64,000 nt of DNA. Source: a virus. The stretch is from UHGV virus genome UHGV-0066004; one strand, written 5' to 3'. Positions 30,356 to 61,721 of this stretch are shown here, piece by piece. How positions within the stretch are numbered: position 1 is the first letter of the stretch; each line of letters starts with the position of its first letter. Both the position numbers and the translations under genes were made by a program. The notes beneath the pieces are model-generated. The model was not told the DNA's origin, made no database searches, and saw only the letters and a program-made list of their open reading frames with translations.

Positions 30356-30430
30356 AGCATTAATTTGGAGCATCCAGAGGGAATCGAACCCTCAACCTCA
30401 GTTTGGAAGACTGTAATTTTCCCGTTTAAA
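30356..30430 (-). tRNA. tRNA-Gly (TCC)
   Basis: acceptor GCATCCA/TGGATGC; loop CTTCCAA. Confidence 0.7.
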
Positions 30431-30436
30431 CTATGG

Positions 30437-30512
30437 ATGCACTAATTGGTGGAGAAGCAGGGAATTGAACCCTGTACTTAAGTTTGCAAAACTTATGTTT
30501 TAACCATGTAAA
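30437..30512 (-). tRNA. tRNA-Ala (TGC)
   Basis: anticodon stem TAAGT/ACTTA, loop TTTGCAA; T-arm CAGGG-TTCAATT-CCCTG. Confidence 0.7.
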
Positions 30513-30518
30513 CTACAT

Positions 30519-30594
30519 CCCCAATGTATGGTACAGGTGGAGGGAATTGAACCCATCGTCTTACTGATTAAGAGTCAGCCGCATAACCATTTTG
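30519..30594 (-). tRNA. tRNA-Lys (CTT), tentative
   Basis: anticodon stem GCTGA/TCAGT, loop CTCTTAA; weak T-stem. Confidence 0.55.
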
Positions 30595-30601
30595 CTACAC
30601 C

Positions 30602-30679
30602 TGCATTAATTTGGTAGGAGACAAGGGATTCGAACCCTCAAACACCAACTTCTAAGGATGGTAGGTTTACCAATTACCG
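30602..30679 (-). tRNA. tRNA with Leu anticodon TAG, atypical short variable arm
   Basis: 78 nt; T-arm GAGGG-TTCGAAT-CCCTT; loop CTTAGAA; A73. Confidence 0.5.
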
Positions 30680-30756
30680 TCAATCTCCCATTAAATCTTT
30701 TTAGAGAACTTCTAAGAACCTAAGCAACAAGGTTCCACAACAAGCTGTAATAACCT

Positions 30757-30783
30757 TAGAAGCCCTCTAAAAAGACCTAAAAA
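30757..30783 (-). terminator. stem-loop terminator candidate inside tRNA array
   Basis: aaagacc-loop-ggtcttt palindrome with U-run on minus-strand reading. Confidence 0.4.
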
Positions 30784-30937
30784 GGTCTTTGCATAGTCTT
30801 GTTTAATCCGGTGACTAGAACCTTTGGAGAGCTTGATATTATCTCTTCTCCGTGACACATACTAGGTGCTTTACTGTGCTTGTACGACAATACACGAGGG
30901 ATACCAAAGCAACATCCGAATGAAGCTTGGCTTTAAA

Positions 30938-31025
30938 CCTTATTAGGCGGTAAGTAAAGGAGTCGAACCCTCACCGTATCTCTACAGTGGCAACTGTTTT
31001 CAAGACAGTTTGGCTACCATTAGCC
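30938..31025 (-). tRNA. tRNA-Ser (TGA), type II
   Basis: 88 nt, long variable arm; anticodon stem ACTGT/ACAGT, loop CTTGAAA. Confidence 0.7.
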
Positions 31026-31038
31026 GCTACCTACCCCT

Positions 31039-31121
31039 AATAAGACTTTGGCATGGGACGGAGGAGTTGAACCCCTTTGAAACGGTTTTGGAGGCCGTTG
31101 CTCATGCCTTAGAGTCTTAAC
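31039..31121 (-). tRNA. tRNA-like, anticodon tentatively CCA (Trp), extended D region
   Basis: perfect acceptor ATGGGAC/GTCCCAT; loop CTCCAAA; about 7 extra nt in D region. Confidence 0.45.
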
Positions 31122-31263
31122 ATCGTCCCATATTATAATTCGAAGCTTACCGTATTATCTCAACACTGTAAAGCCCCTTCTCAGATTATTTACATGTTCT
31201 GGAAAACATGAGATACAGACCACCTCCCTACAGGAAGACCCGCTTAGGTCGTCTAAGTAATCT

Positions 31264-31340
31264 GCTAACTAATTGGCACACCCTACAGGATTCGAACCTG
31301 TAACTAACGATTTAGAAGACCGTTGCTCTATCCAATTGAA
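31264..31340 (-). tRNA. tRNA-Arg (TCT)
   Basis: D-arm GTTC-AATTGGATA-GAGC; loop CTTCTAA. Confidence 0.75.
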
Positions 31341-31587
31341 CTAAGGGTGCATTAATCTTTAAAGACTCTCTTAGAAAGCCCTTAAAGATGCCCACCTTAT
31401 TAATCATACCGTGGGCTAGTACGCCAAATTCTTTGATGAGGGATTGGAAGACCTCACTGGTGTTTAGCCTATCAAGCTACTGCCAGAAAAACATTGTCGT
31501 TTGCATTTATTTTAAATTTGCAAAATAGACGCTACGCAACGAAAACTAAGGTTACTATAAAGTAGTCACATCTCAATGTCAACAACT

Positions 31588-31663
31588 TTATTGAAATTGG
31601 TACTGGTAGGTGGAATCGAACCACCGATGTTCCCTTATCAGGGGAGTGTTATAACCTTCTTAA
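31588..31663 (-). tRNA. tRNA-Ile (GAT)
   Basis: T-arm GGTGG-TTCGATT-CCACC; loop CTGATAA. Confidence 0.7.
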
Positions 31664-31664
31664 C

Positions 31665-31741
31665 TATACCAGCTTGGAGGTTCAGATGGGAATCGAACCC
31701 ACATTCATAGGGCTTATGAGACCCTTGCATTACCTTATCTG
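31665..31741 (-). tRNA. tRNA-Met (CAT)
   Basis: perfect acceptor GGTTCAG/CTGAACC; loop CTCATAA. Confidence 0.7.
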
Positions 31742-31745
31742 CGAC

Positions 31746-31821
31746 TGAACCATATTGGTAGAAGTGGAGGGATTCGAACCCATCGCCTGTCAGATTAAAA
31801 GTCTGCTGCATCACCATTCTG
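31746..31821 (-). tRNA. tRNA-Lys (TTT)
   Basis: T-arm GGGTTCGAATCCC; loop CTTTTAA. Confidence 0.7.
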
Positions 31822-31825
31822 CTAC

Positions 31826-31969
31826 ACTTCCATTAAATTATCTTTGTAGATAAGCTACCCAGACTTGCTTAAGGTCTGTAGCGATGTGCCTTGTTGGGTT
31901 TAAATCTAGAATTTACCCTTTCACCCTTTGTGGTCGCATACTCACAGGTAAGCTTAATAACTTATCTAC
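31826..31969 (-). ncRNA. structured RNA candidate closed by a 19-bp perfect inverted repeat
   Basis: aattatctttgtagataag at 31826-31844 is the exact reverse complement of 31951-31969; internal CCAGAC/GTCTGG hairpin; no convincing ORF. Confidence 0.4.
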
Positions 31970-31970
31970 A

Positions 31971-32102
31971 AAGATAATTACCAGACCGTTGTTTATCATC
32001 TTAAGTGCTACCATTACACCAACTCGACATCTGCCGAGTGAAGGAATCGAACCTTCGCCTTTTCTTTACCGGAGAAATAGATTGTTTAAGTTTTGCTGTA
32101 AA
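31971..32102 (-). ncRNA. Y RNA-like (YrlA-type) candidate: circularly permuted tRNA-like module closed by a bulged terminal helix
   Basis: minus strand reads 5' CAGAAGACCG ... T-arm GAAGG-TTCGATT-CCTTC, acceptor 3' strand ACTCGGC, AGAT loop, acceptor 5' strand GTCGAGT, TG, D-arm GTGT-AATGGTA-GCAC ... AACGGTCTGG 3'; ends pair with AAG bulge; no anticodon arm. Confidence 0.55.
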
Positions 32103-32115
32103 CGGTCTTCTGTAA

Positions 32116-32188
32116 ATTTGTTGAGCCAGACCAAGTTTAAATTTTCAAAATTAAATTGGCTTGAAATTTCATACGTTCTTGCTGTATT
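32116..32188 (-). ncRNA. Y RNA-like helix element (no tRNA-like module)
   Basis: same closing helix (CAGAAGACCAA ... TTGGTCTGG) around an AT-rich hairpin. Confidence 0.4.
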
Positions 32189-32249
32189 TGGTCTTCTGCT
32201 CCTTTAAAGGATACTCGTAAGGACCCTTTAAGGGAGGGGCTAAATAGCC

Positions 32250-32327
32250 CTCTCAAAATTGGCGGTTACGAAGGGATTTGAACCCTCATCATCTCCCGTG
32301 ACAGGGGAGTATTTTAACCAAATTAAA
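32250..32327 (-). tRNA. tRNA-Asp (GTC)
   Basis: perfect anticodon stem CTCCC/GGGAG, loop CTGTCAC. Confidence 0.75.
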
Positions 32328-32332
32328 CTACA

Positions 32333-32420
32333 TAACCTTTATTGGTGTGCCGTGTAGGAGTCGAACCTACCGAGTCTCAATGACAAGGGATTTACAGTCC
32401 CCACCGCTACCATCTACGGG
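32333..32420 (-). tRNA. tRNA-Tyr (GTA), type II
   Basis: 88 nt with long variable arm; loop CTGTAAA. Confidence 0.7.
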
Positions 32421-32429
32421 ATAACGACA

Positions 32430-32506
32430 CATTTAAATTTGGCGGTTAGTCAGGGATTCGAACCCTGTGCCATTCGCTTAACAGGCGACCGCACATACCT
32501 TATATG
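32430..32506 (-). tRNA. tRNA-Asn (GTT)
   Basis: T-arm CAGGG-TTCGAAT-CCCTG; loop CTGTTAA. Confidence 0.65.
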
Positions 32507-32517
32507 CTTCCTAACCT

Positions 32518-32577
32518 TAATACATTGCCAGACCGTGTTTTTTCTTTTATCCGCAAAAAGTATTTTGTTGCTGAATA
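32518..32577 (-). ncRNA. Y RNA-like helix element
   Basis: closing helix GCAGAAGACCGT ... ACGGTCTGGC with 3-nt bulge. Confidence 0.4.
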
Positions 32578-32583
32578 CGGTCT

Positions 32584-32660
32584 TCTGCAAAATTGGAGGC
32601 GGGTGCAGGAGTCGAACCTGCCGATACCATGCTAATGAGACATGTGAGACGCCCTTTCTC
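32584..32660 (-). tRNA. tRNA (CAT); Met/Ile2 type, 1-72 mismatch
   Basis: loop CTCATTA; acceptor TGCGGGT/ACCCGCC with T1-C72 mismatch. Confidence 0.55.
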
Positions 32661-32671
32661 TATACCCGCAA

Positions 32672-32743
32672 TTCTCAATGACCAGACCAAATATCTTCTT
32701 TGTCCGATTTCGTGTCAGATGAGTAGATTAAGTTTGCTGTAAT
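32672..32743 (-). ncRNA. Y RNA-like helix element
   Basis: closing helix CAGAAGACCAATT ... ATTTGGTCTGG. Confidence 0.4.
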
Positions 32744-32750
32744 TGGTCTT

Positions 32751-32828
32751 CTGTCAAAACTGGCGTTCCAGAAGGGATTTGAACCCTCAGATATCCACTT
32801 TGAAAGAGTGGTGACTTTACCATTTTGT
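32751..32828 (-). tRNA. tRNA-Glu (TTC)
   Basis: perfect acceptor GTTCCAG/CTGGAAC; anticodon stem CCACT/AGTGG, loop CTTTCAA. Confidence 0.75.
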
Positions 32829-32835
32829 CTACTGG

Positions 32836-32912
32836 AACATTAATTTGGTCTCTGTTGGAGGACTTGAACCTCCGGCCTTACCGCCCCAAACGGAACGCTC
32901 TACCAAGCTGAG
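32836..32912 (-). tRNA. tRNA-Pro (TGG)
   Basis: D-arm GCTC-AGCTTGGTA-GAGC; T-arm GGAGG-TTCAAGT-CCTCC; loop TTTGGGG. Confidence 0.7.
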
Positions 32913-33087
32913 CTAAACAGAGATAAACTTTTCAAACTCTATGTAACCACTTTAACATTATTTTTTAGTGGTTGTCAAGAACTTTTTTAAAATATTTTTC
33001 AGTATCTTAGAAAAGCTCTCGTTTCGTTTCTATGTAGAACATATTAAAGGGTATCAAACACATTGTCAATACCCTTTTTAAAACTTT

Positions 33088-42990: not shown

Positions 42991-43080
42991 AAAATTTTAT
43001 CGGTTGTCCCAACCTCTGGGTCACCATCATATGTGAATAAAATATCTACCCTTCTTAACAACCTTCTTAATCTTACTCTC

Positions 43081-43112
43081 TATATAGTTATATAGTACTA
43101 TATAGTATCTTA
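43081..43112. repeat. tandem tatatagt repeats
   Basis: tatatagt x3 in direct tandem. Confidence 0.6.
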
Positions 43113-43539
43113 GTAACTATCTAGTGGTCTTAATAGCCCTCTGTATAGCCCTTCTAAATAGCCATCTAAACACTCTTCTAACAAACCTTCTTAACAATCT
43201 ATACAATCACCTTAACCATCTCTCTACATCCTCTTAGAAGCTCCTATACACCTCTTAATCTCTATGTTAGCTATGTTACTCTCTATAGGTGTTCACTAGG
43301 AAATACTAAGCCTCTATATAGACTGTTTTAACAAACTTAACAGGAATATCTTTACAGGCCTTATCTCACAAGGTCTAACACGGTACTAACAAGGTATCTT
43401 ATAAGCCTGTTTCTACCTGTATTTTTAAAAGACTGTATAGGTAATTATTCAGAATTTTAAAATTTTTATAAAATAGGACTATCAAGTCATTTTTTAGGGT
43501 CTTTGAAGGAACTGAAAAATATCTGTAGAAGATGTATAT

Positions 43540-44090
43540 CTGCTTGGTAGCCCTTAACAGCTCCCTTACAAGTACTTTGCAAAATTTTAAAATATCCTTA
43601 ACAATCTCTTAACAGCTCTCACATCTTCTTAACAACTCTTCAAAGGTCTTAACAGACTCTTAACAGAACTAACAAGGGTGTAACAGTTTCTTAACAGTTG
43701 ATACATAGGCTTAACAGAATCTTAACAGATGACTAACAAGAGCTAACAAGTTAATTTTAAAGAGTTATTTTGTTAAGATAATTAACAAGTTTCTAACAAG
43801 TGTTTAATCTTTTTAACAAGCTATTAACACGGTCACTATCTCTGGTCTTATCGTTCCCTTCTCCTCTTAGTGATTCTTTAAACATACCTCTTAAAAGCTC
43901 TCTATAGCTCTTTATAGGCTCTTTTAAGCATCTTCCTAGTATTTACCCCTCAACTGTATGGATAGCTCTTTATAAGGCTTTACAGGAGCTTTTAAGGCTA
44001 TGCCAAAGATTCTTACAAGGCTTTTACGTGGTCTTAACAGAGATTTAACAAGGGGCTAACAAGTTGCTAACAAGTGCCTTAAAAGCATAA
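43540..44090. repeat. iteron array: about 20 direct copies of CTTAACAG / CTAACAAG-type motif
   Basis: visible by eye; no ORF over 60 aa in 42950-44560. Confidence 0.7.
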
Positions 44091-44101
44091 CTATGTAGGG
44101 T

Positions 44102-44152
44102 TTGTTAAGAAATTGTTAAGAAATTGTTAAGAAAATGTTAAGAAAATGTTAA
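44102..44152. repeat. five tandem copies of TTGTTAAGAAA (inverse of the upstream iteron)
   Basis: ttgttaagaaa x5 head-to-tail, facing the direct array. Confidence 0.75.
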
Positions 44153-44580
44153 GGGGGCTAGCATTTACGTAACTTTATAGCCTCTTTTACGTAACTTTTA
44201 AGCTACTTTTAAGCCCCTATAACATACTTTTAAGACAATAACAAGCCCTTTATAGTAGTTCACAAGAATACTAACGAGATGATAAAGCTTACACCCTTAT
44301 AAGATTCTTTTAAGGCTCTGGGAAGCTCTAGGAAGGGCTTTTTAGAGTGGGTTAATATGATTGCTTAAGTTAGGTTGATAAGGCTGTTATAGAGCTTTAT
44401 AGAGCGTTTTAGTGGTTGCCCTTCCCTTTCGGGTTATGGGCTTACATTTAAGGGAAAGATTAAGTTGATTTGATAAAAGGCTATAGAGTAGACTATAGAG
44501 TTATTGCTTTTTAAGGTCTGGTAAAGTTCTGACTTGTTAGGTGGGTTTTAAGATTCTGGAAAGGAATTTGATAGACGTAA

Positions 44581-44888: not shown

Positions 44889-44975
44889 TTTAGAATCTCC
44901 AGTTTAGGAAGTTGATTAAGGGTTTTATTTAGTGGGGAAGGTCATTCCCTCCCCGTTGATTGACAATTTACAGAC
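44889..44975 (-). repeat. conserved upstream cassette, family 1 (hairpin GGGGAAGG-TCATT-CCCTCCCC + RBS)
   Basis: near-identical ~80-bp sequence recurs before six minus-strand genes. Confidence 0.7.
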
Positions 44976-45498
44976 TTTTGATTGTTTCGTCAATATCTTT
45001 TTCAATATCTTTTAAAGTTTTTTCTAAGTTCTTGATATTGAAAGATAATCCTTCTCCCAGTGTCTTAGAGTAACCGCTAGGACGTGAGTCATATAGTTCA
45101 ATTTCTTCTACTTCGAAGAGGCTAACCAACTCACCGCTTACACTGTAAGCCATTGAAACAGTATTTACAGGGGCTTTATAGAACTTGTTCAAGGACTTGA
45201 TAGAACGTTCATAAGCCATTTTATAACCGTTTAAAAGGTTTTTAACGTGGTTACGAACGTTTTTACACTCATCTAGATAAATCTCTAAGAATAACGGTAA
45301 TAACTCCGCTACAGCTTGCATAAAGTGAGAGACTACAACGGTTGCAACATTACGACGATGTACATAATAAGCCCCGTTTTCTGATTTGGTGATGGTTGCA
45401 AAGTGTACCCCATTACAACGGAACTCATATGTGTCTTTAACAGGCTTAGACATTACAGCATTTGAACGAATGTAGTTGATAGCTTTAAACTTGTTCAT
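44968..45498 (-). CDS. hypothetical early protein
   Basis: 176-aa ORF. Confidence 0.55.
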   Translation of the reverse strand: MNKFKAINYIRSNAVMSKPVKDTYEFRCNGVHFATITKSENGAYYVHRRNVATVVVSHFMQAVAELLPLFLEIYLDECKNVRNHVKNLLNGYKMAYERSIKSLNKFYKAPVNTVSMAYSVSGELVSLFEVEEIELYDSRPSGYSKTLGEGLSFNIKNLEKTLKDIEKDIDETIKSL

Positions 45499-45570
45499 TT
45501 TGACTCTCCTAGTTTAAGGATTTTATTTAGTGGGGAGGGATGACCTCCCGTTGATTAGTAATTTACTTGT
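45499..45570 (-). repeat. conserved upstream cassette, family 1 variant
   Basis: ggggagggatgacctcccg hairpin variant plus shared RBS. Confidence 0.6.
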
Positions 45571-45717
45571 TTTGATAGCTGATTGCAAGCAATTTTTTAA
45601 GCTTATCTATAAAGAATCTTTTAAGTGAATCCCTTTTAGATAAACCCCCTCGAACAAAGTTACCAATGTCAAGGGGTATTGTCAACACTTTTTTAAAAGT
45701 TTTTTATAAGTTATTGA

Positions 45718-46059
45718 TTAACTGATGAATATTTTTTCAGGTTTTACATAGCTGATACGCTGACTTTTTAGCAGGTCATCCCAGATTAGAGCGGCAATAT
45801 GAGGATAACCGGATTCACGTAAGAGCTTCATTGTTTTACTTCTCGTTTCAAAACGGCTTGCGTAGTACTCACTATTCAGAGTTGTTTTCTTCCCTTCGTT
45901 GTCTACATGGATAATCTGCATCACTTGAAAGGGGCTTGTGTCCTCGCCTTTGTTCCACTGTTCAAAGTATTTTAGGCACTGCATAGGCGACATCTTATCA
46001 CTAACCTGAGTTGACCAAGATGCGCCAGCTTTATCGGTAATTACGGTTACATAAGACAT
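45718..46059 (-). CDS. hypothetical early protein
   Basis: 113-aa ORF. Confidence 0.55.
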   Translation of the reverse strand: MSYVTVITDKAGASWSTQVSDKMSPMQCLKYFEQWNKGEDTSPFQVMQIIHVDNEGKKTTLNSEYYASRFETRSKTMKLLRESGYPHIAALIWDDLLKSQRISYVKPEKIFIS

Positions 46060-46140
46060 TTTTGAATCTCCTAGTTTAAGGACTTTACTTAGTGGGGAAG
46101 GTCATTCCCTCCCCGTTGATTGACAATTTACAGACTTTTA
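46060..46140 (-). repeat. conserved upstream cassette, family 1
   Basis: same sequence as copy at 44889. Confidence 0.7.
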
Positions 46141-46150
46141 TCAGGCTTGT

Positions 46151-46384
46151 CTAGTCTTTTTCAATGATAATTTCATATTGACCGTCAACGCTGTCAAAAT
46201 AGATGCCGTCTTCATCTTCTGTCTTAAAGTAGCATTGTATATCATCACTTGCGGGATAGTCTTGCCGTGCTATCTGGCAAGCTTGAATAGCGTTTTCTTT
46301 ACTTCCTGTGAACTCCTCAAGCCCTTTAAAATCACATGAATGGCCATTACAAATTGAGAGGATGAGATAAATGGTTGTAAGCAT
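46151..46384 (-). CDS. hypothetical small secreted protein
   Basis: 77 aa; hydrophobic N-terminus. Confidence 0.5.
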   Translation of the reverse strand: MLTTIYLILSICNGHSCDFKGLEEFTGSKENAIQACQIARQDYPASDDIQCYFKTEDEDGIYFDSVDGQYEIIIEKD

Positions 46385-46447
46385 GATTTAAGCCCTCTAA
46401 ATGGCCCTGTATGGGCCTTAAGTTGGAAATTAGTGTCTTTGTACTGC

Positions 46448-47014
46448 TTAGTCTAAAAAGTCGCTTAGATTGCGCTCTGTGAGATTCTCGGTAATTTTAT
46501 CCAGCAGGTCACAAAACAAAGAAGAAGTATCCCCGCTATTCTGTACAATTTTTGCAATACTCAACAAATCATCGTCAATATAGCCCAAATTGCGGTTAGT
46601 TGTATCAGGTACAAAGAATGGCGCATACATTGCACTAAATTTCGTCGAGTGAATACCGATAATCCAATCTTTATCAAAGTAACCGGTAAAGCTGGCGATT
46701 TCGCTCATGTTGTCACAAGAATAATCGTCCTCAAGTTCTTCCTCTGGGATATCCATCTCAATTACAATCACTTCCTGCGTTTCCATTTGGAAAGCTGCCG
46801 TAATAAGCCCCGACTCTAAAGCGTTTTGAATGCAGCGTTCACGGATGTAAGAGGCTTCTTCATCTTCCAGGCATTCCGTCTTGATAATCTTATCCATCGG
46901 GTAAACGTAAAAACAATCATCCATGTAAGAGCAGTTCCAGATACCTTCCGGCTTGTCGCCACCTTTAAGCAGGTTTACAAAGTTTTTCAGAGTAGTGCCG
47001 TGATAGCATTTCAT
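46448..47014 (-). CDS. hypothetical early protein
   Basis: 188 aa, acidic. Confidence 0.55.
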   Translation of the reverse strand: MKCYHGTTLKNFVNLLKGGDKPEGIWNCSYMDDCFYVYPMDKIIKTECLEDEEASYIRERCIQNALESGLITAAFQMETQEVIVIEMDIPEEELEDDYSCDNMSEIASFTGYFDKDWIIGIHSTKFSAMYAPFFVPDTTNRNLGYIDDDLLSIAKIVQNSGDTSSLFCDLLDKITENLTERNLSDFLD

Positions 47015-47100
47015 TTTTGAATCTCCTAGTTTAAGGATTTAGTGGTAAAGCTCTTTATCTGGGGCTTACTTTATCGAACTATAAGCCCCTTGTAAAGTAC
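47015..47100 (-). repeat. conserved upstream cassette, family 2 (hairpin GGGGCTTA-N13-TAAGCCCC + RBS)
   Basis: near-identical sequence recurs before five minus-strand genes. Confidence 0.7.
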
Positions 47101-47101
47101 T

Positions 47102-47305
47102 TTATTTGTTATTTTTGACAACTTTTAAAACTGCAAGATAACCTAAGCAATAAGAATCACCGAAGAGAGTCCTACCCATGAAAGAATCCTCTGCAATATC
47201 TTTCGCCGTGACGGTTTTTTCTACGCCGTGAAAGAGAACTACATCACCAACTTTAATATCTTTGATGTGTGTAGTTTCAATGGTTAAGCCGTTAATAATA
47301 GCCAT
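47102..47305 (-). CDS. hypothetical small protein
   Basis: 67-aa ORF. Confidence 0.45.
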   Translation of the reverse strand: MAIINGLTIETTHIKDIKVGDVVLFHGVEKTVTAKDIAEDSFMGRTLFGDSYCLGYLAVLKVVKNNK

Positions 47306-47400
47306 TTTGAATCTCCTAGTTTAAGGACTTTACTTAGTGGGGAAGGTCATTCCCTCCCCGTTGATGTGTAATTTAATCTATCTAAAAACCAGTGTCAACA
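47306..47400 (-). repeat. conserved upstream cassette, family 1
   Basis: sequence repeat. Confidence 0.7.
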
Positions 47401-47405
47401 GTTTT

Positions 47406-47810
47406 TTAGAGTTCTGCATAAATTGCGTCACAGATATCACGGAAGTCGTGATTTGATAGGTTACGTTGTAACCAAGTGGCGAAAAAGTCAGCGATTGCAT
47501 AATTGGCATCGTAGTCAACTGATAGCCACACTTTTACGGCGAATCTGAACATTTTTAAATCAAGCTCTTTATTCATTACCTTAGATTTGCCCAACATGTC
47601 GACCATTTCATATTGTGCGCCGTCTAGCGTGATACCTGCTGCAACGTCAGCCAATGAGCTTTTTACGTTTTCAATGTCTAAGATAACACTTTGAATCTTT
47701 CCGATAATGTTGTGCAATGTCTCATCAGGTGCTGATGACGTGATAACATTAATCCGGTTAACGGTCAAACGTGCTTTTAAGATTGATAACTCACGGTTGT
47801 TAATAGCCAT
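47406..47810 (-). CDS. hypothetical early protein
   Basis: 134-aa ORF. Confidence 0.55.
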   Translation of the reverse strand: MAINNRELSILKARLTVNRINVITSSAPDETLHNIIGKIQSVILDIENVKSSLADVAAGITLDGAQYEMVDMLGKSKVMNKELDLKMFRFAVKVWLSVDYDANYAIADFFATWLQRNLSNHDFRDICDAIYAEL

Positions 47811-47895
47811 TTTAGAATCTCCAATTTAGGATTTAGTGGTAAAGCTCTTTATCTGGGGCTTACTTTATCGAACTATAAGCCCCCTGTAAAGTACT
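47811..47895 (-). repeat. conserved upstream cassette, family 2
   Basis: sequence repeat. Confidence 0.7.
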
Positions 47896-47896
47896 T

Positions 47897-48169
47897 TTAC
47901 ACTAAATGCAGCTTTTTACCTTTTACCATGATGTAACTCGATGCGCTATTGCTACAAACATCTTGATAAATTCTGCGCAAACGTCCTTCGTAGTGTACTT
48001 TCCAACTAGTTGGAATCTTTTTACCATATCCGGTAGCAGTTTTTTGGAGTCCTGCTACTTGCCAATCTAAGATATGTTGCTCAGCTTGTAAATCCTCAAA
48101 GCACATTACACCATCTACATAGTGACGTAAAGTTACATTTAAAGTGCGACCGTTGTTAGTAGTATACAT
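47897..48169 (-). CDS. hypothetical early protein
   Basis: 90-aa ORF. Confidence 0.5.
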   Translation of the reverse strand: MYTTNNGRTLNVTLRHYVDGVMCFEDLQAEQHILDWQVAGLQKTATGYGKKIPTSWKVHYEGRLRRIYQDVCSNSASSYIMVKGKKLHLV

Positions 48170-48258
48170 TTTTGAATCACCTAGTTTAAGGACTTTATTT
48201 AGTGGGGAAGGTCATTCCCTCCCCGTTGATGTGTAATTTAATCTATCTAAAAACCAGT
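48170..48258 (-). repeat. conserved upstream cassette, family 1
   Basis: sequence repeat. Confidence 0.7.
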
Positions 48259-48259
48259 G

Positions 48260-48592
48260 TCAAGAATTTTGTTTTCGTTTGCTCAATTCTTGAACAATTA
48301 CAGCGTAGTAGTCTTTTAAGTCAATGATATTTAAAGCATTTATCAGAGAATTATAATCATCAACTAACTGGAAATCATCTTTGAAGATGTCACTTATCTG
48401 ATAGGTTTTCGCTTTATATCTGAAGCTCATCTCTAGCCGCTTTATTTGCTCATCACTGAGACGCCCTAGAAAGCTTTCTACAAGGTTATTGCTAACCTGC
48501 TGTGTGATTGCCTTATTTGCTAGATTATAGGCTTTATATGCCTTATAGAGCGCGAGAATGGCAATGATTGCAGTGATGCCAGTCATTAACAT
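48260..48592 (-). CDS. hypothetical membrane protein
   Basis: 110 aa; N-terminal hydrophobic segment. Confidence 0.5.
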   Translation of the reverse strand: MLMTGITAIIAILALYKAYKAYNLANKAITQQVSNNLVESFLGRLSDEQIKRLEMSFRYKAKTYQISDIFKDDFQLVDDYNSLINALNIIDLKDYYAVIVQELSKRKQNS

Positions 48593-48882
48593 GGTGTTTC
48601 CTCTTTACGTGATACTTTGCCATTTACAGATATCTCATAAGAATCTAGCAAATCACTTTTAGACTTTACTGGACTTTTAAAAGTATCATCATAAATATTT
48701 ACTTGCAATACAGGTTTTTTGTACTCCCTGCAGCTATTCCATAAGCAAATCACTACGCGACGGCCTTTGATTTTTCCGTGTAACCATTCCATAACATCGT
48801 GGCTATTTCTTGATGTCTCGATAAAATCAATTTTGTTGAGTAACTTGCTTAGATTTTCACGGACTTTATTTGACAATTTCAT
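48586..48882 (-). CDS. hypothetical early protein
   Basis: 98-aa ORF. Confidence 0.5.
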   Translation of the reverse strand: MKLSNKVRENLSKLLNKIDFIETSRNSHDVMEWLHGKIKGRRVVICLWNSCREYKKPVLQVNIYDDTFKSPVKSKSDLLDSYEISVNGKVSRKEETPC

Positions 48883-48965
48883 TTTTGAATCTCCAGTTTA
48901 GGATTTAGTGGTAAAGCTCTTTATCTGGGGCTTAAGATATCAACTTTTAAGCCCCCTGTAAAGTA
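48883..48965 (-). repeat. conserved upstream cassette, family 2 (variant loop)
   Basis: sequence repeat. Confidence 0.65.
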
Positions 48966-48970
48966 CTTTA

Positions 48971-49276
48971 TCAGTTAATTTTCAGTTTTGCATAGCCTCT
49001 GATTGTTCGAATGGGGGAGGTTAAGGCCACGCGTTTGATATATGATTTTTTAGTGTATACGTTTGTTTTACCGAGTGTTTCCACACCTTTAAAAAGGTTA
49101 TTTGAACTGCGTTTCAAGGTTAAATGTTTATCAACCTTTACGCCCCATCTTACAGCAGACTGTTTTCCGTTGTCAACCACTTTCCCGCATAACTTTTTAG
49201 CCATGATACGAGCGTCATCACGAGTCTTTGCGGTAATTACAACGTTTTTGATAATAGCCATTTTTAAGTTCTCCAA
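48971..49276 (-). CDS. hypothetical early protein
   Basis: 101-aa basic ORF. Confidence 0.5.
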   Translation of the reverse strand: MENLKMAIIKNVVITAKTRDDARIMAKKLCGKVVDNGKQSAVRWGVKVDKHLTLKRSSNNLFKGVETLGKTNVYTKKSYIKRVALTSPIRTIRGYAKLKIN

Positions 49277-49347
49277 TTTAGGATTTAGTGGTAAAGCTCT
49301 TTATCTGGGGCTTACTTTATCGAACTATAAGCCCCTTGTAAAGTACT
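49262..49347 (-). repeat. conserved upstream cassette, family 2
   Basis: sequence repeat. Confidence 0.7.
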
Positions 49348-49731
49348 TTATTTGTTAATTTTGAAGATAGTTACATAACCATCGCTGCCGATGATTTGTG
49401 ATGCTCCAGCTTTTTCTACTTGATAGCCCATATTTTCAAGATGGTAAACAGCATCATCATAACCATATGCGCCGCCCTGATAACGTCTCTTATCACATCT
49501 TACTAATACCTTTCCACGTCCTGCCAGTGCATTTAGTACGGCTTTTTCACTTGAAAGTGTACCATCTAACATGGTTGCCGTGTAATGGTTGATTCTATTC
49601 CCGTTTACATCATACTTAAAATTGAATGCGTGAACAACGATAATGTTACCTTTAAAATTTTCATCAAGTGACTTCTCCAGTGCGTTGCGAAAGTTGTCTT
49701 TGTTGATGAATTTAGGTGCACGATATGCCAT
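49348..49731 (-). CDS. hypothetical early protein
   Basis: 127-aa ORF. Confidence 0.55.
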   Translation of the reverse strand: MAYRAPKFINKDNFRNALEKSLDENFKGNIIVVHAFNFKYDVNGNRINHYTATMLDGTLSSEKAVLNALAGRGKVLVRCDKRRYQGGAYGYDDAVYHLENMGYQVEKAGASQIIGSDGYVTIFKINK

Positions 49732-49820
49732 TTTTGAATCTCCTAGTTTAAGGGTTAATTTGGTAAAGCTCTTTATCTGGGGCTTACTTTATCGAACTAT
49801 AAGCCCCTTGTAAAGTACTT
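49732..49820 (-). repeat. conserved upstream cassette, family 2
   Basis: sequence repeat. Confidence 0.7.
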
Positions 49821-49821
49821 T

Positions 49822-50043
49822 TTATTTATCGTAGTAGTAAATTGCTGTCTGTCTCGTAAATTTTTTAGTATTTCTTGTAAGGTAGCAATTAGAGTTTATA
49901 GCTGTTTCTACATAGTTGCAATAGTCAGCTTCTGATATTCTGGACCATACGCCACAGATTTGCATGTAAAAACGTTTTGCCTTTGTGTTAACGTTAGTTG
50001 TAACCATCAATTCGCGACTGTAAAGCATTATTTCGCGCTCCAT
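49822..50043 (-). CDS. hypothetical small protein
   Basis: 73-aa ORF. Confidence 0.45.
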   Translation of the reverse strand: MEREIMLYSRELMVTTNVNTKAKRFYMQICGVWSRISEADYCNYVETAINSNCYLTRNTKKFTRQTAIYYYDK

Positions 50044-50216
50044 TTCTCAAAGAGTTCAGCAGGGAAACGTTCGCTATACCCTTTTAAGGAAAAAGTATTA
50101 TCTTTGTGGATAGCTTCCACCTGATAAACCTTATAAGAGCGTATAGTTAGCATTTTGTAAGAGTATTCGTGCTTAATGTTAACCTCATCGCCAACTTTAA
50201 TTTTTCTTGATGCCAT
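50028..50216 (-). CDS. hypothetical small protein
   Basis: 62-aa ORF. Confidence 0.45.
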   Translation of the reverse strand: MASRKIKVGDEVNIKHEYSYKMLTIRSYKVYQVEAIHKDNTFSLKGYSERFPAELFEKWSAK

Positions 50217-50285
50217 TTTTGAATCTCCAGTTTAGGATTTTATTTAGTGGGGAAGGTCATTCCCTCCCCGTTGATGTAAATATTA
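50217..50285 (-). repeat. conserved upstream cassette, family 1
   Basis: sequence repeat. Confidence 0.7.
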
Positions 50286-50469
50286 GATAACCACGTTCAA
50301 AGAGTCAATAAAAATTTTAAAAATATTTTTGGCAAAACTGTAATGAAACGGGTGCGCACGACTACCACAAAACAGAACGCAAATCAAGAATTATTTTTCA
50401 ATCCGCTACAAATTTTTCTCTTGACTTTTGGGGAGAGGAAGAGGGGGAGAGGGGTTGGGCTGGCTGTCT

Positions 50470-50665
50470 ATAAAAACCTACCTGCACAATTCTAAAATGA
50501 TTTTTCTTGCCCGACCTGAGCGGGGTCTGCACGTTTTGAAAATGAAAAAGCTCTTTGGAGATTACCTGCACAGTTTGAAAATGAATTTTCTCTTTGGAGT
50601 TCAAAATTCTCTCTACAGATTTCTCTACAGAACTCTACCTGCACAATTCTAAAATGAAAAAGCCC
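50470..50665. repeat. four direct repeats of CCTGCACA(A/G)TT(C/T)(T/G)AAAATGA in a non-coding gap
   Basis: copies near 50476, 50526, 50562 and 50636; no credible ORF. Confidence 0.6.
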
Positions 50666-50730
50666 TCCTTACCTGAAAAATTTACCAGATAAGAAAGGCT
50701 TAGGCTATTGTGAATATACTACAGAGTTTC

Positions 50731-51516
50731 TTAGTTCTTTGCGTCTAAGAAGGTAACTTCTGGTGAAGAGAAGATTGCCTCGATATCCTCATCAGTTCTT
50801 GCATAGATATAAGCTTCTGCATCACTACCAAATGTTACAGCAATTCTGTGATTGCTCTTTGACAGGTGGGTAACTAGAGCGTTACTTAGAGACATCTTTT
50901 CAACCGGAGGGTTACTTTGATGTATCTTACCTTTTCTTCGTCTGAAGAGGGTAACTGCGTTATCTGTGAACACTGCTACACCTGCAAAGTATTCTGGTTC
51001 ACAGTAGTTCTTCCAACCTGAGCGTAACTTGTGGTACATCTCGCCTTCATAGACATACAGATAAACATCTACACTCTTCATCACCTGATTGATGATAACT
51101 GTGATGGCTTGAGGGTCAAGTCCACCGATACCTGCACCAATCATAGGTAAACCAACTTTCTTCAACTGATTAACTTCACAGTATCTGTTAAGCTGTTTCA
51201 AAGATGACTCTAAAGCACTGTATCGGGCATCTTTACCAGTCTTAAGCTGAGTGTAAAGGTTAGCTATACGACCTTGTTTTAAGCGTGCTACAGAGAAATT
51301 ACCTAGTAAATTCTCACAGGGTTTGTGACCTATACCACCTGCATAGAGATAAACTTCTGTATCGGTCTCATATGCTTTTGGGTAAAGTTTAGAAATCTTG
51401 TCAGCGATACCTGCGCCCATTAGGTTCATGCAGTTACAACCATGACCAATGATGTCAAACTTACCTTTATCAAATGCAGCAAAGATATCACCATTGATGA
51501 TTTTTACAATACCCAT
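50731..51516 (-). CDS. macrodomain protein (TARG1/DarG-like ADP-ribose hydrolase fold) with C-terminal extension
   Basis: 261 aa; GDIF ... GHGCNCMNLMGAGIA and VGLPMIGAGIGG match the TARG1/DarG macrodomain pattern. Confidence 0.7.
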   Translation of the reverse strand: MGIVKIINGDIFAAFDKGKFDIIGHGCNCMNLMGAGIADKISKLYPKAYETDTEVYLYAGGIGHKPCENLLGNFSVARLKQGRIANLYTQLKTGKDARYSALESSLKQLNRYCEVNQLKKVGLPMIGAGIGGLDPQAITVIINQVMKSVDVYLYVYEGEMYHKLRSGWKNYCEPEYFAGVAVFTDNAVTLFRRRKGKIHQSNPPVEKMSLSNALVTHLSKSNHRIAVTFGSDAEAYIYARTDEDIEAIFSSPEVTFLDAKN

Positions 51517-53544: not shown

Positions 53545-54240
53545 TCAATGTTTAACTAACATGGTTTTGATGTGTGGAAGTATTCTGTTCACCTTCTGCA
53601 CATTCTTCTCTGTGTCTTCTATAAAACATACTATATTAAAGTAAGGCAGAATACAAGACTGAATCATCCTCACTTTCAAACTTTCTGCACTTATAGAGTT
53701 AGTCCCAAAACCACGCATAAAAAGCATGTAGTCATGCTCTGTGTTATGCCTTAAAAACATCTCAGTAGGTATTCTCTGAGATTCACCTCTCGCTGTCAAG
53801 AGTCCAATGGCAGCATGATTAGCAATTGCATCAATAATACTAAAGACATACGTTGGTTTTGCTCTTACAGAGTCAAGAAGATTAGTGTACTGTGAGAATG
53901 ACCCATCAGTCAATTCCGTTGAGCAATCTTCGTGATTAAAATTTGTAAGAACACCATCAATATCTGCTAAGATGAGGTTACCTTTTTCTACAAGGTCTTT
54001 ATTGACTATGACTAAGCTATCACGACTTACACCTATAGTTTGTCCAGTCTCTTTATCTACAACATTCACAATTGGCTCTGATGTGTGGAACTCTTCGAGT
54101 GAACATACAACTTCTCTTGCAGTGTCTTCAAAATCCCTACACTGTTCTGGAGTCCATACACAGGAATCAAGACCTAACTCATGAGGATGTAAGTCGTAAG
54201 CATGACACAGTACTTCATCAGACTTTTTTAATTTTTTCAT
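53545..54240 (-). CDS. putative HAD-family hydrolase/phosphatase
   Basis: 231 aa; LILADIDGVLTNF matches HAD motif I (DxDG). Confidence 0.5.
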   Translation of the reverse strand: MKKLKKSDEVLCHAYDLHPHELGLDSCVWTPEQCRDFEDTAREVVCSLEEFHTSEPIVNVVDKETGQTIGVSRDSLVIVNKDLVEKGNLILADIDGVLTNFNHEDCSTELTDGSFSQYTNLLDSVRAKPTYVFSIIDAIANHAAIGLLTARGESQRIPTEMFLRHNTEHDYMLFMRGFGTNSISAESLKVRMIQSCILPYFNIVCFIEDTEKNVQKVNRILPHIKTMLVKH

Positions 54241-54766: not shown

Positions 54767-54866
54767 TGGTTCTCCTGTTTAGTTTATCGTGACAACAATT
54801 ATACAGCACTCTGCACAAAATACAAATAAAAAAGGCCGCCGAAGCAGCCTTTTAAGAAATTACTTA

Positions 54867-55976
54867 TTAGATTTCACGTTTACGTTGGGAGATTAGTTCA
54901 CCAGCAGTGCCAACGATGACATGCAAAGCTTCAGTCTTGCCATCCCATTCTTTCAGCACTTTACGTTGATTATCAACGATTGCTGCAACTTCATAACGAG
55001 ACGAACGCATCTTCATATCGTTGTAATCAGTTGGAACAGATACAACATCTCGTGGATGGACACGAACCTTCAGGATTGTATCACCTGAGAAGCAACGAAC
55101 ATAATCCCAAGCACCAACGTGAAGACCCTGAGAGCAAGTCACGTTACGGTTATTATCAACCATCCAACGTGGCATTTCTACAATGTTACCCAAATCATTA
55201 GGTACTCTGTAGGTGTGGGAGTCAACCAGCTTGCCTTCATGAGTAGAGACTTTCTTCCAACCAATGATGTAGCCTTCTTCATCAATTTCAACATCAAGGT
55301 GAGATACGAATCCCCAAAGTTGTTCTACAGAGTCTTTAGATGGGTTTTCCATCAGTTTTTCGAAGAACATCACAAGGCGTTCAAAACCCTTATCTCCAGT
55401 CTTCATCATGTGAAGAATACGGTCAACCAGAGTAGAACGCATCTCAACAGCACCGTAGAATAACTTGTCACCTTTGATGGTGATAGCACCCTGAGTGAAG
55501 TTTTCGATAGACTTACGAATGTTCATCAGTTCGAAAGCTTTCTTATACTCACCGGATACAACAGCCATCACGATTTCTTTGTAGTTCGGATGGGTAGATT
55601 CAACGATTTCAGAATCTGCACCGAAAGTCATGATAACAGAGTCGCCAGTAATCATGTACTCAATCTGGTTGCCATTCTGCATAGCTTCATGCAGTTTATT
55701 TACCGGAGCTTTCTGTACAGGCTCTTTAACAACCTTTTCAACTGGTTTGTCAGCTTTCTTTTTAACTGATTTAGCAACTTGCTTCAAAGTCTTCGTAGCT
55801 GGTTTAGAAGCTACCTTTTTCTTACCTTTTAAGGTTGCTTCATGACGCTCTACAGCACGACCAACTGAACGGGTTGAAGTATTGAACTTCTGTGCAATAG
55901 CTGTTTTAGTCAGCTTACCTTCTTTAACCAGTTCGTAAATTTCTGCGTCAATCTGTGCTTTAGTTTTAGTAGTCAT
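54867..55976 (-). CDS. rIIB: rIIB-like protein
   Basis: 369 aa directly downstream of rIIA-like gene, same strand (T4-type synteny). Confidence 0.55.
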   Translation of the reverse strand: MTTKTKAQIDAEIYELVKEGKLTKTAIAQKFNTSTRSVGRAVERHEATLKGKKKVASKPATKTLKQVAKSVKKKADKPVEKVVKEPVQKAPVNKLHEAMQNGNQIEYMITGDSVIMTFGADSEIVESTHPNYKEIVMAVVSGEYKKAFELMNIRKSIENFTQGAITIKGDKLFYGAVEMRSTLVDRILHMMKTGDKGFERLVMFFEKLMENPSKDSVEQLWGFVSHLDVEIDEEGYIIGWKKVSTHEGKLVDSHTYRVPNDLGNIVEMPRWMVDNNRNVTCSQGLHVGAWDYVRCFSGDTILKVRVHPRDVVSVPTDYNDMKMRSSRYEVAAIVDNQRKVLKEWDGKTEALHVIVGTAGELISQRKREI

Positions 55977-58997: not shown

Positions 58998-60779
58998 TTA
59001 AAGCTGCTTGTCAATATTATTTCGAATATCACCAAGAGTTGTGTAACCGAACTGCTCAGAGTCACTAAAGACTAAACGTAAAGCACAGGCTGGGTGGTCA
59101 AGTACATCTGCAAAACTCTGGAATCCATATCCATCTACAGCTTTCAGCTTATCACCGTCCCACATAGGTGCTACACCACCAAAGGCAGACTTCTTAACAC
59201 CACTATCTGTTTTAGGGTCTTTTGCAAGCATAATCTCTTTACCACCAATGCTTGCAAGAGTTGCTTTGACAGCAAATGCAAAGGTGTCACGAGTCATGTA
59301 CTGGTAAGTGTAGGAGCCTACACCAAACACTACGTTAGAGCTTGCAAAACCCATTCCATACAGACGCTTCAGGATTTCGTTTGCACGTTCCAGCGTGATA
59401 GAATCACCATAGATAAGGCCGATATGCTCATCCAGTACCTTAAACCCTTTAGAGTTAATAGTTCCCCCAAAGATGTTGTACAGTGTCTTAATAGCTCCAT
59501 CAATCTCAGCTACAGGACGTGTTACAACGTTTGCAGAACCAACCATATAAGCATCCTTTAACATCACCGTATCAGCAGCTTCAAAGTCTTCTCTGTCAAC
59601 AACCATTTCGTAGCCTTCTGACAGTAGCCATCCAGCAATACCATAGCTGATGTTTTCAAGCTTCATGTTCAGAATAGCATTCAACATTGTGTCACTGGCT
59701 TCCAGCTTGCTTAGGTGCTTATAATAAGCCTTCTTAGCACACTCTAAGTGGATTGCTTTATAACCTGTGACAATATGTACAGGGTCTCCAGAGTCAGGAC
59801 GAATTACCAGTTTGCCATCACGTTCCATAATTTCTTTACGGAGTGCTGGTAAGATTTCTGACACAGTTCTCCAGAAGTTATAAGTATCTGAAACAATACT
59901 TGCAATACCAGTTGGGTAAGTTTCTGTTAAGAAACGACGGAAGGTTTGTAACTCACCTTTAAAGCGTCTTTCTTCTTCAATCAATTCATTACCACCTTCC
60001 CAAGCAATGTTTGCACACATTACAGAGTGCTCAGTGGCTGGTACAGAACTACCAATATCAGAGATTGGGTAAGACTGACCATAGATTCGTTTAGCCGTGT
60101 ATACAGCAGGGAAGCTATCAGTTCCTTTAAAGCTGGTTAAGTGACCTACAGCGTTAAATGCGTCATCAGTAAAGCCGGACATACCACGCATAGCAAAGTC
60201 ATGGCACTGATAAGGCAAATGTAAGTCGTTGTCACAAGTAAGGTCAGACCACTTCTTACAGATACGTTTGTAGTGCAATGCAATAGTCGCAATGGTACAA
60301 GCCTTCCAAATTTCAGCAGAGAAAGCATCTTCCAGATAACCTGCTACCCAATGGAAACCTGAAACAGTGTTCTGGAAGACAATCATTGGGACACGCATAG
60401 GAACAACTGTACCTTCTTCTACAGCGTATACTTCAACTGGTAGATAACCTAAGTCGTGAAGTGATTCCCAATGCTCTCGACCGATAGCATCTTTACCCAG
60501 AACACCATTCATGACTTCTAAGATTTCGTCAACTGCTTCTTTTTTATCACGTTCAAAGAAAGTGGCGTTCCAGTGGTCTATCAGGTAATCTTTAACGAAA
60601 CGTTGAATACCAAAAGCTACTACACCATCAATTGCTAAGGGGCTGTTAAACCATTTGTCACTACGTGGTGTCAGGTTGAACATCAAGTATTCTGTTGCAC
60701 TAGGGTACTGGTAAACATGACCAGATTTGTAAGCATCTGCGTTTAAACCTGCTGGTACTGCGTAAAGCGATTTAGTCAT
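58998..60779 (-). CDS. nadV: nicotinamide phosphoribosyltransferase-like enzyme (NadV/Nampt family)
   Basis: 593 aa; NadV-like N-terminus; adjacent to Prs-like gene. Confidence 0.75.
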   Translation of the reverse strand: MTKSLYAVPAGLNADAYKSGHVYQYPSATEYLMFNLTPRSDKWFNSPLAIDGVVAFGIQRFVKDYLIDHWNATFFERDKKEAVDEILEVMNGVLGKDAIGREHWESLHDLGYLPVEVYAVEEGTVVPMRVPMIVFQNTVSGFHWVAGYLEDAFSAEIWKACTIATIALHYKRICKKWSDLTCDNDLHLPYQCHDFAMRGMSGFTDDAFNAVGHLTSFKGTDSFPAVYTAKRIYGQSYPISDIGSSVPATEHSVMCANIAWEGGNELIEEERRFKGELQTFRRFLTETYPTGIASIVSDTYNFWRTVSEILPALRKEIMERDGKLVIRPDSGDPVHIVTGYKAIHLECAKKAYYKHLSKLEASDTMLNAILNMKLENISYGIAGWLLSEGYEMVVDREDFEAADTVMLKDAYMVGSANVVTRPVAEIDGAIKTLYNIFGGTINSKGFKVLDEHIGLIYGDSITLERANEILKRLYGMGFASSNVVFGVGSYTYQYMTRDTFAFAVKATLASIGGKEIMLAKDPKTDSGVKKSAFGGVAPMWDGDKLKAVDGYGFQSFADVLDHPACALRLVFSDSEQFGYTTLGDIRNNIDKQL

Positions 60780-60824
60780 CTTTTAATCTCTCTCAAAATG
60801 GGGCTTTCAAGCCCCTATAAAGTT

Positions 60825-61721
60825 TCAATCAATGGTTGCTACAGTAACTTGGGCGTAATGTGTTAAGCCACGGTCTTTAGCTTCACCTAAAGTGTTTGTA
60901 GTGTAGATATGGTCAATACCGTTGTCAAGTAAGTTTTCAACACCTTTAGAGAAAATACCATGAGTTACATAGAGTTCCACACGTTTTGCACCTGCTTCAC
61001 GTAGGTGTTTAGCTGCCTCTACGAAGGTTCGACCACCATCACAGATATCATCAAGAATCATGACAGTTTTATCGGTCAAATCAACATCGTCAAGGATTCG
61101 CATACCAGTGATTTCTCCAGTCTTAAGATTGCGCACCTTAGACATTGTGATATACGGTTTATCCACCTCTTTAGCGGTATCTTCAGTCTTCTTAGCTGCA
61201 CCTGCATCTGGGGCTACCAAGAAATCAATGCGTGGGTCACTTGCAAAGTGTACTGCCACATCTTTTTGCTTCATGCTTTGAAAGCACTTAAATAAGTTTT
61301 CTGCAACATTACTGTGAGGGTCAAGAGCACATACTGCATCAAAACCCATTGCATTAACTAGGTTGGCAAAGACTTTCAGTGCTGCTGCATCACCTTTGAA
61401 CATGTGGCGGTCATATCGAGCATTTGGTAAGAACCCGAAAACAACGGTTTTCATCGCTGATTTCTGGGGAACAAGACTGTCAACGGCATCCTTAGCCAAA
61501 GCTAATGCAAACAGTGTATCTTTGTCATATCCCTGCACAGTAAGTATAACATTGTCAATCTTACCAGCATTACGCTCAGTAAACTTAACAAAATCTTCAG
61601 AGAAGTTTCCACCAATTTCTCCAGATGGGAATTGAATGATATTAAATTTTTCTGTGTGGAAGAATTTCTCTTGTGCGGTGACGACGGCTTCAATAACAGT
61701 TTTCATAGTTTTCTCTCTCAA
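60825..61721 (-). CDS. prs: ribose-phosphate pyrophosphokinase-like enzyme (Prs family)
   Basis: 298 aa; PRPP-binding motif VMILDDICDGGRTF. Confidence 0.75.
   Translation of the reverse strand: MREKTMKTVIEAVVTAQEKFFHTEKFNIIQFPSGEIGGNFSEDFVKFTERNAGKIDNVILTVQGYDKDTLFALALAKDAVDSLVPQKSAMKTVVFGFLPNARYDRHMFKGDAAALKVFANLVNAMGFDAVCALDPHSNVAENLFKCFQSMKQKDVAVHFASDPRIDFLVAPDAGAAKKTEDTAKEVDKPYITMSKVRNLKTGEITGMRILDDVDLTDKTVMILDDICDGGRTFVEAAKHLREAGAKRVELYVTHGIFSKGVENLLDNGIDHIYTTNTLGEAKDRGLTHYAQVTVATID

Follow-up and report, generated by a model that had tools for sequence, protein, structure and literature searches.

An array of direct repeats conserved downstream of the macrodomain gene in Felix O1-type phages, a candidate regulatory or boundary element

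Results

Organization of the locus

The DNA analyzed here, a 64-kb stretch of the virus genome UHGV-0066004 (hereafter the window), carries a macrodomain (macro) gene followed by a non-coding gap of 514 bp (50217–50730), within which four direct repeats form an array. The array lies between a conserved block of genes, from rIIA to macro, and a variable block of small early genes that reaches the genome end. The gap and its flanks matched Felix O1-type phages (Felixounavirus), with 98.7–100% identity to Escherichia phage ekra. Since all of the genes around the array are on the minus strand, the array is located downstream (3') of the macro gene, behind the terminator of that gene, and not upstream of it as was proposed in a preliminary description of this DNA. 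The same description placed the array next to the last cassette-driven early gene and gave the gap limits as 50280–50730; in the order of transcription the array is in fact upstream of the first cassette gene, and the gap begins at 50217.

Read in the direction of transcription, the gap consists of the macro stop codon, a terminator hairpin with its T tract, the four repeats, a polypyrimidine tract, a conserved block of ~45 bp, a sigma-70-type promoter and, ahead of the 62-aa gene, a hairpin with a Shine-Dalgarno sequence (Table 1). The macro protein was recognized by Pfam (Macro, E=3.9e-7), falls within PHROG 335 ("phosphatase") and matches macrodomains in the PDB. Its terminator is listed as t13 in Table 2 of the Felix O1 genome paper (PMC3185647) and is annotated as a terminator in wV8, ASO1A and KhF3; the hairpin was the only helix with cross-genus support in RNAalifold. 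The T tract of this terminator, TTTTTCATTTT (50651–50661), constitutes the 5' half of repeat copy a.

Table 1. Features of the non-coding gap and its flanking genes, together with the solitary motif copy, in the 64-kb window
Feature	Position	Strand	Remarks
Macrodomain gene, 261 aa	50731..51516	-	Last gene of the conserved rIIA to macro block; array always directly after
Intrinsic terminator hairpin of the macro gene (Felix O1 "t13")	50660..50701	-	Terminator scan
Repeat copy a, first along transcription, TCATTTTAGAATTGTGCAG	50639..50657	-	
Repeat copy b, TCATTTTCAAACTGTGCAG	50566..50584	-	Preceded by conserved box CTCCAAAGAG at 50590–50599
Repeat copy c, TCATTTTCAAAACGTGCAG	50527..50545	-	Preceded by conserved box CTCCAAAGAG at 50551–50560
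Repeat copy d, TCATTTTAGAATTGTGCAG	50482..50500	-	Flank GGTCGGGCAAGAAAAA common to copy c of Erwinia (Kolesnikvirus) phages
Polypurine/polypyrimidine tract, G-rich on the + strand	50430..50459	.	Adjoins the array; alignment
Conserved non-coding block AAAAGTCAAGAGAAAAATTTGTAGCGGATTGAAAAATAATTCTTGA	50384..50429	-	Alignment of relatives
Sigma-70-type promoter TTGACT-17-TAATAT of the first promoter cassette	50280..50308	-	Promoter scan
First cassette gene, 62 aa, PHROG 15633, no assigned function	50028..50216	-	Gene here differs among relatives
Fifth, solitary copy TTATTTGTATTTTGTGCAG	54811..54829	-	Relaxed scan

The polypurine/polypyrimidine tract that adjoins the array is hypervariable and not universal, and about half of the Felixounaviruses have a different G-rich segment bearing an extra GTGCAGGT half-site. 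Three independent assemblies (L011, L012 and LMP34) end within this tract, the second of them running into a Nextera adapter, and the tract therefore resembles an assembly break point. The block AAAAGTCAAGAGAAAAATTTGTAGCGGATTGAAAAATAATTCTTGA is retained in Felixouna-, Susp- and Moogleviruses, even where the adjoining tract is swapped. The promoter that follows possesses an AT-rich upstream element and is annotated as a promoter in ASO1A. It belongs to a ~100-bp cassette of promoter, hairpin and Shine-Dalgarno sequence, at least five copies of which precede small early genes at 44900–50320 (44.9–50.3 kb); a second ~100-bp family also precedes small early genes in this range, and the two families match the repeats DR_1 to DR_9 of the wV8 annotation.

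Genes for the macrodomain protein, a polynucleotide kinase, a nicotinamide phosphoribosyltransferase and a PRPP synthetase are found in the early block (50731–51516, 53545–54240 and 58998–61721). This gene set suggests that NAD+ would be restored and ADP-ribosylation reversed, which might be a counter-defence. The minus strand of the window also has 26 clustered tRNA genes, at 27776–32922.

Anatomy of the repeats

The degenerate 19-mer CTGCACRNTTYKAAAATGA has exactly four matches in the window, all on the + strand, which are the copies d, c, b and a of Table 1. Only 0.07 matches would be expected by chance and none of 100 dinucleotide shuffles reached four, confirming that the direct repeats of the preliminary description are real. 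A search of the window with the core TCATTTY-N6-GTGCA, allowing at most one mismatch, returned the same four sites only. The consensus as previously written was exact for three of the copies, while copy 2 (TCTGCACGTTTTGAAAATGA) departs from it at three positions. The spacing had been called regular but is not; the start-to-start distances are 45, 39 and 73 bp, and the series that reads 73/39/45 along transcription here is 37/37/39 in Erwinia phages.

On the transcribed strand, the unit can be written as W5-TCATTTY-N6-GTGCAG(G). The TCATTT and GTGCA blocks are invariant and are positioned about one helical turn apart, whereas the six bases between them are A/T-rich and variable (AGAATT, CAAACT, CAAAAC, CAATTT and others), and the five bases ahead of the unit are a run of either A or T. 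The units are asymmetric and all copies have the same orientation. An alternative reading of the unit is 9+3+9 bp, i.e. TCATTTTCA-ATT-TGTGCATAG. Two fixed blocks separated by about one helical turn, with a free center, are typical of a site at which a protein contacts two major grooves in succession.

Conservation and specificity of the array

Felixouna-, Moogle-, Susp- and Kolesnikviruses (the last being phages of Erwinia and Salmonella) and a distant 88-kb contig, L054, all have an array of three to five copies in the same orientation, in a syntenic position immediately behind the macro gene, so that the motif is conserved among relatives in four genera and beyond. The spacings differ across the genera (73/39/45; 75–77/39–41/45; 37/37/39), and the five copies of L054 have a period of 38 bp. 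A subset of the Felixounaviruses has three good copies, and copy b is lost or replaced in some members of this genus. In Felix O1 itself the array is located at 7989–8164. Copy a overlaps the terminator T tract in some genera only; in Kolesnikviruses it is found 25 bp further on, and no terminator was seen at the array of L054. The macro proteins of the distant array carriers are 37–43% identical to that of the window and the synteny with the array still holds, indicating that the array is better conserved than the neighboring gene. To compare individual columns, a synteny-based alignment of 23 distinct sequences was used, in which the repeat columns had been defined from the within-window repeat only; 66% of the columns in the repeats were invariant vs. 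43% in the spacers (Fisher p=0.004).

The contig L054 (IMGVR_UViG_3300045988_063805, positions 367–1222) has no close relative among 50,697 phage records. Its order is a short macro gene similar to T4 Tk.4, the five motif copies (TTCATTTTAAAAACGTGCATAGG) and a 150-bp tract with about eleven TTAACA repeats; these two repeat types, adjacent in L054, are ~6.4 kb apart in the window. In another contig, L017 (IMGVR_UViG_3300045988_004180), the array switches after copy c, within the last ~230 bases, to unrelated GC-rich sequence of bacterial appearance, probably as the result of a chimeric assembly.

A scan of IMG/VR with a two-copy pattern detected only contigs of Ounavirinae size and one probable chance match, and outside the Ounavirinae the scans of bacterial genomes and metagenomes returned only unrelated tandem repeats, which are chance matches to the pair pattern. 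One 10.2-kb contig, Ga0180433_10011929 (L046/L118), which is unrelated, has at ~6254–6321 a tandem pair of 50-bp units that include AATCATTTTAACATAGTGCAG and are closely followed by a promoter-like sequence and a gene; these could be a chance occurrence or a similar operator in another phage. No similar DNA was found in 72,556 plasmids or in 5,426 E. coli genomes, and a host or plasmid origin of the motif was rejected for this reason. Together with the chance-only matches outside the Ounavirinae, this absence argues for a phage-specific partner of the array. In a complete Kolesnikvirus genome the motif is present nowhere outside the array, and the 23 kb of the closest genome, ekra, that extend beyond the window contain no further copies. 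The genome-wide motif search that the preliminary description had called for thus located the array motif elsewhere only as one solitary promoter copy (described below).

The genome paper of Felix O1 lists only repeats of at least 24 bp and makes no mention of the array (PMC3185647); neither do those of wV8 and UAB_Phi87, and it is likewise undescribed in the other papers and the GenBank records consulted. The element would be classified as a subfamily-specific array of the operator or iteron type, and the array and its promoter partner are the strongest-conserved non-coding signals that we found in the early region.

A fifth copy within the promoter downstream of rIIB

The solitary copy is located 4.1 kb upstream of the array, directly after the rIIB terminator hairpin (54834–54849), and falls within a sigma-70 promoter consisting of a -35 hexamer TTGTAT (54820–54825), a 16-bp spacer and a -10 hexamer TATAAT (54798–54803). 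It spans positions -38 to -20, such that GTGCAG occupies -25 to -20 of the spacer. Among Felixouna-, Moogle- and Suspviruses, TTATTTG, GTGCAG and TATAAT are fixed, whereas the N6 before and the N7 after GTGCAG vary freely. A hexamer conserved within a promoter spacer suggests a candidate regulator site. At both the solitary copy and copy a of the array, GTGCAG is located exactly 17 nt past the last G:C pair of the terminator hairpin. The solitary copy is found at position 3519 in Felix O1 and is absent from Kolesnikviruses, which have nevertheless kept the array; the link to this promoter can therefore not be the core function of the array.

Search for a candidate binding protein

PHROG and Pfam scans of ~30 early ORFs revealed no DNA-binding or replication-initiator family above threshold, and a PDB sequence search with the macro protein yielded no DNA-binding match above threshold. 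The sole lead as a candidate binder is rIIB (54867–55976, minus strand), the N-terminal part of which resembles a helix-turn-helix (HTH) domain (Pfam HTH_Tnp_ISL3, E=8e-4, below the family cut-off). This is followed by a basic linker rich in lysine, alanine and proline and then by the rIIB domain. The recognition helix is conserved across Felixouna-, Moogle- and Kolesnikviruses.

Discussion

Felix O1-type phages are classical typing phages and are currently used as biocontrol phages. According to the genome paper of Felix O1, the timing of their transcription and the way in which it gets past the many terminators are not known (PMC3185647). The array and its promoter copy offer a direct experimental handle on the protein that would read them, and hence on the choice between a regulator, an origin and an entry checkpoint.

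We tentatively propose that the array is a set of docking sites for one sequence-specific, probably phage-encoded protein, and that it may serve as a regulatory or boundary element. A protein, or a pair of domains, would contact two successive major grooves across the A/T-rich center of each unit, and with three to five sites of the same orientation, several molecules would be loaded next to one another. The factor could be a transcription regulator that controls the promoter downstream of rIIB. When bound at the array, it could also form a boundary, acting as a roadblock or insulator that reinforces termination between the rIIA to macro block and the variable early block; alternatively, the array might be an anchor for looping to the promoter site. 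The preliminary description had considered operator sites for a regulator or a second, smaller iteron-type element. Repeats of the protein-binding kind are indeed favored by our data, and the conserved fifth copy within a promoter core speaks for the operator part of that proposal, but the array overlaps no promoter, with the nearest copy ~174 bp from the -35 hexamer, and the adjacent unwinding element, DnaA boxes and initiator gene expected of an origin of the iteron type were not found. A regulatory or boundary role is slightly favored over a replication origin by the existence of the promoter copy and by the location immediately behind a terminator. In Felix O1, RT-PCR placed mixed timing classes on either side of the array, which therefore forms no clean temporal boundary.

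A replication origin is an unlikely alternative, in which the repeats would bind a phage initiator, the nearby DNA would be opened and the phage primase and helicase would be loaded. The array shares with iterons (lambda ori, P1, F and T4 oriE) a small number of ~20-bp direct repeats in one orientation that are non-coding, near-unique and strongly conserved, and lambda ori itself comprises four 19-bp sites for the O protein. Several same-orientation repeats of ~17–25 bp would be expected at an iteron origin, and four are present here and three to five, of ~19–25 bp, in relatives, in a non-coding gap beside an active promoter. The stronger conservation of the array relative to its flanking genes and its occurrence once per genome in Kolesnikviruses are also in keeping with an origin, as is the 3' half of the Kolesnikvirus unit, YTATGCACA, which matches the DnaA box at 8 of 9 positions. 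However, the window copies match the DnaA box TTATNCACA at only 5–6 of the 9 positions, and as an identity for the motif the DnaA box was rejected because this reading also leaves the invariant TCATTT half unexplained. Iterons are usually spaced by ~22 bp, unlike the 37–45 and 73 bp of the array, and no recognizable initiator gene is adjacent to it or among the ~30 early ORFs. There is likewise no adjacent, dedicated unwinding element: a nearest-neighbor stability scan placed the least stable DNA of the window at 43.0–43.8 kb, by the terminal repeat, and near the array only the ordinary UP element of the promoter is AT-rich, an element that the other cassettes carry as well. GC skew follows the gene strand and was uninformative as an origin marker. 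A regulator would account for the fifth copy being within a promoter. The arrangement is also known for autoregulating Rep proteins, and in plasmids an extra partial copy in the promoter is typical of autoregulating initiators. Considerably less probable is a DNA-entry checkpoint or membrane anchor comparable to the injection stop signal of T5, at which the genome would be held after the end-proximal small early genes have entered; the holder would be a membrane-associated DNA-binding protein, e.g., rIIB with its HTH, or host DnaA in the Erwinia phages. The T5 signal is located 7.9% from the genome end, by poorly conserved ORFs, and contains DnaA boxes paired 3 bp apart (bioRxiv 10.1101/866236). 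By homology to the terminal repeat of Pr103Blw, the array is 6.9–7.1 kb (7.8–8%) from the right genome end. The array there adjoins a hypervariable block of small genes, each with its own promoter and read in the direction of that end, a layout that is the same in Kolesnikviruses. As in T5, the element is thus a conserved non-coding repeat cluster near a genome end and adjoins poorly conserved small early ORFs; its unit can be read as 9-mers paired at 3 bp, Kolesnikviruses have near-consensus DnaA boxes (8/9), and rIIB combines a conserved N-terminal HTH with a basic linker. On the other hand, the argument is one from position. In T5, inverted repeats and palindromes are nested over 1.2 kb within a terminal repeat of 10 kb, and the DnaA boxes there fit the consensus (bioRxiv 10.1101/866236), in contrast to the three to five direct repeats in ~180 bp of the array, which include no inverted repeats or palindromes of the T5 type, lie outside a terminal repeat of ~0.6 kb and, in the window, do not conform to the DnaA consensus. 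In L054, moreover, more genes follow the array, past the short TTAACA-rich tract. A fully developed myovirus checkpoint, in which the end-proximal ~7 kb (~8%) of small takeover genes would enter first and the DNA would be held until early proteins release it, appears more doubtful still. To our knowledge, two-step DNA transfer has never been reported for Felix O1-type phages.

The remaining explanations do not invoke a protein bound to DNA. Being just after a terminator, the array would be present on read-through RNA, where it could act as a structured small RNA, a 3' UTR signal or, with the C-rich tract, a Rho-loading region; we regard such an RNA-level element as quite improbable. The minus-strand RNA of the gap folds better than shuffled sequences (z=-2.76), and the array is succeeded in this genome by a tract rich in C and poor in G. 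The low folding energy, however, is due to the terminator hairpin, the + strand RNA shows no advantage over shuffles (z=+0.83), and RNAalifold, with a covariation term of -0.77 and a single compensatory pair among 39, supported the terminator hairpin only. No Rfam family matched within the gap, and a DNA-binding site would be expected to show just such a pair of fixed blocks around a free six-base center. About half of the relatives have a different sequence in place of the C-rich tract, and the polypyrimidine tract was for that reason rejected as an essential partner of the array, be it for Rho loading or as a G-quadruplex. It is likewise quite improbable that the units are a functionless relic, generated by tandem duplication of a junction between a terminator tail and a promoter like that after rIIB. 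The 5' half of the motif resembles the ordinary terminator T tracts of this phage, TTTTTCATTTT occurring again at 53.03 kb, and part of the similarity between copies may accordingly reflect descent by duplication. Copy a and the solitary copy have the same geometry of a hairpin, 17 nt and then GTGCAG, and the copy number varies from three to five. Under neutrality, though, TCATTT and GTGCA would not have stayed intact in each copy and genus while the spacers change and the neighboring protein diverges to 37–43% identity. Finally, there is hardly any prospect that the array encodes a small protein with internal repeats, although several GenBank records annotate it in this way. ORFs of 50–97 codons cross it on either strand and are picked up by gene callers; in the window these are one of 74 aa on the + strand and two of 50 and 68 aa on the minus strand only. 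The called ORFs differ in strand and frame among the genera, the minus-strand frame of Kolesnikviruses stops after 10 codons, and no frame is conserved, since the repeat spacings differ by non-multiples of 3 (73/75/77, 39/41, 37/37/39). Hypothetical proteins are annotated across the array as wV8 gene 13 (L001, 2768–2932), in Moogle115 (L004, 1389–1613), as Panisse_00107 (L005, 1386–1550) and in L007 (1389–1682); ORFs of this kind in GenBank are most likely spurious and should be removed.

Several known binding sites were compared with the motif. The marbox read by MarA, SoxS and Rob is likewise an asymmetric two-part site of ~20 bp, composed of a GCAC element and, at a distance of one helical turn, an A-rich element, and it is read by a monomer with two helix-turn-helix motifs. 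In a manual comparison with the marbox (AYNGCACNNWNNRYYAAAYN), 8 of the 14 specified positions matched and the spacing of the two elements was 1 bp short, and this identity was rejected; we know of no arrangement in which four marboxes are clustered after a terminator. Tandem sigma-70 promoters were dismissed because a scan found none in the array on either strand, the hexamers being poor and the candidate -10 varying at its most critical bases. When judged by eye against consensus sequences, none of the sites for IHF, CRP, Fis, LexA, sigma-54, sigma-E, the type I enzyme EcoKI or dif fits all copies.

Among the closest parallels to the array are the multi-site operators of phages, such as lambda OR/OL and the four p4 sites of phi29, where several closely spaced sites for one regulator are present. 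The array resembles these in having several close sites within an intergenic gap of the early region, and a further copy of its motif is present in a promoter core. Classical operators are dyad-symmetric and overlap the promoters that they control, whereas the array consists of asymmetric direct repeats 170–350 bp from the nearest promoter.

A large non-coding region at 43000–44400 is packed with short repeats of the CTTAACA/TGTTAAG type and contains the least stable DNA of the window. It is a better candidate for an origin or packaging site than the array and is probably the first iteron-type element to which the preliminary description alluded. The 581-bp direct terminal repeat annotated in Pr103Blw maps by homology to ~43,546–44,131 of the window; with the terminal repeat at ~43.5–44.1 kb, i.e. 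~6.4 kb away, a packaging site was rejected as an identity for the array.
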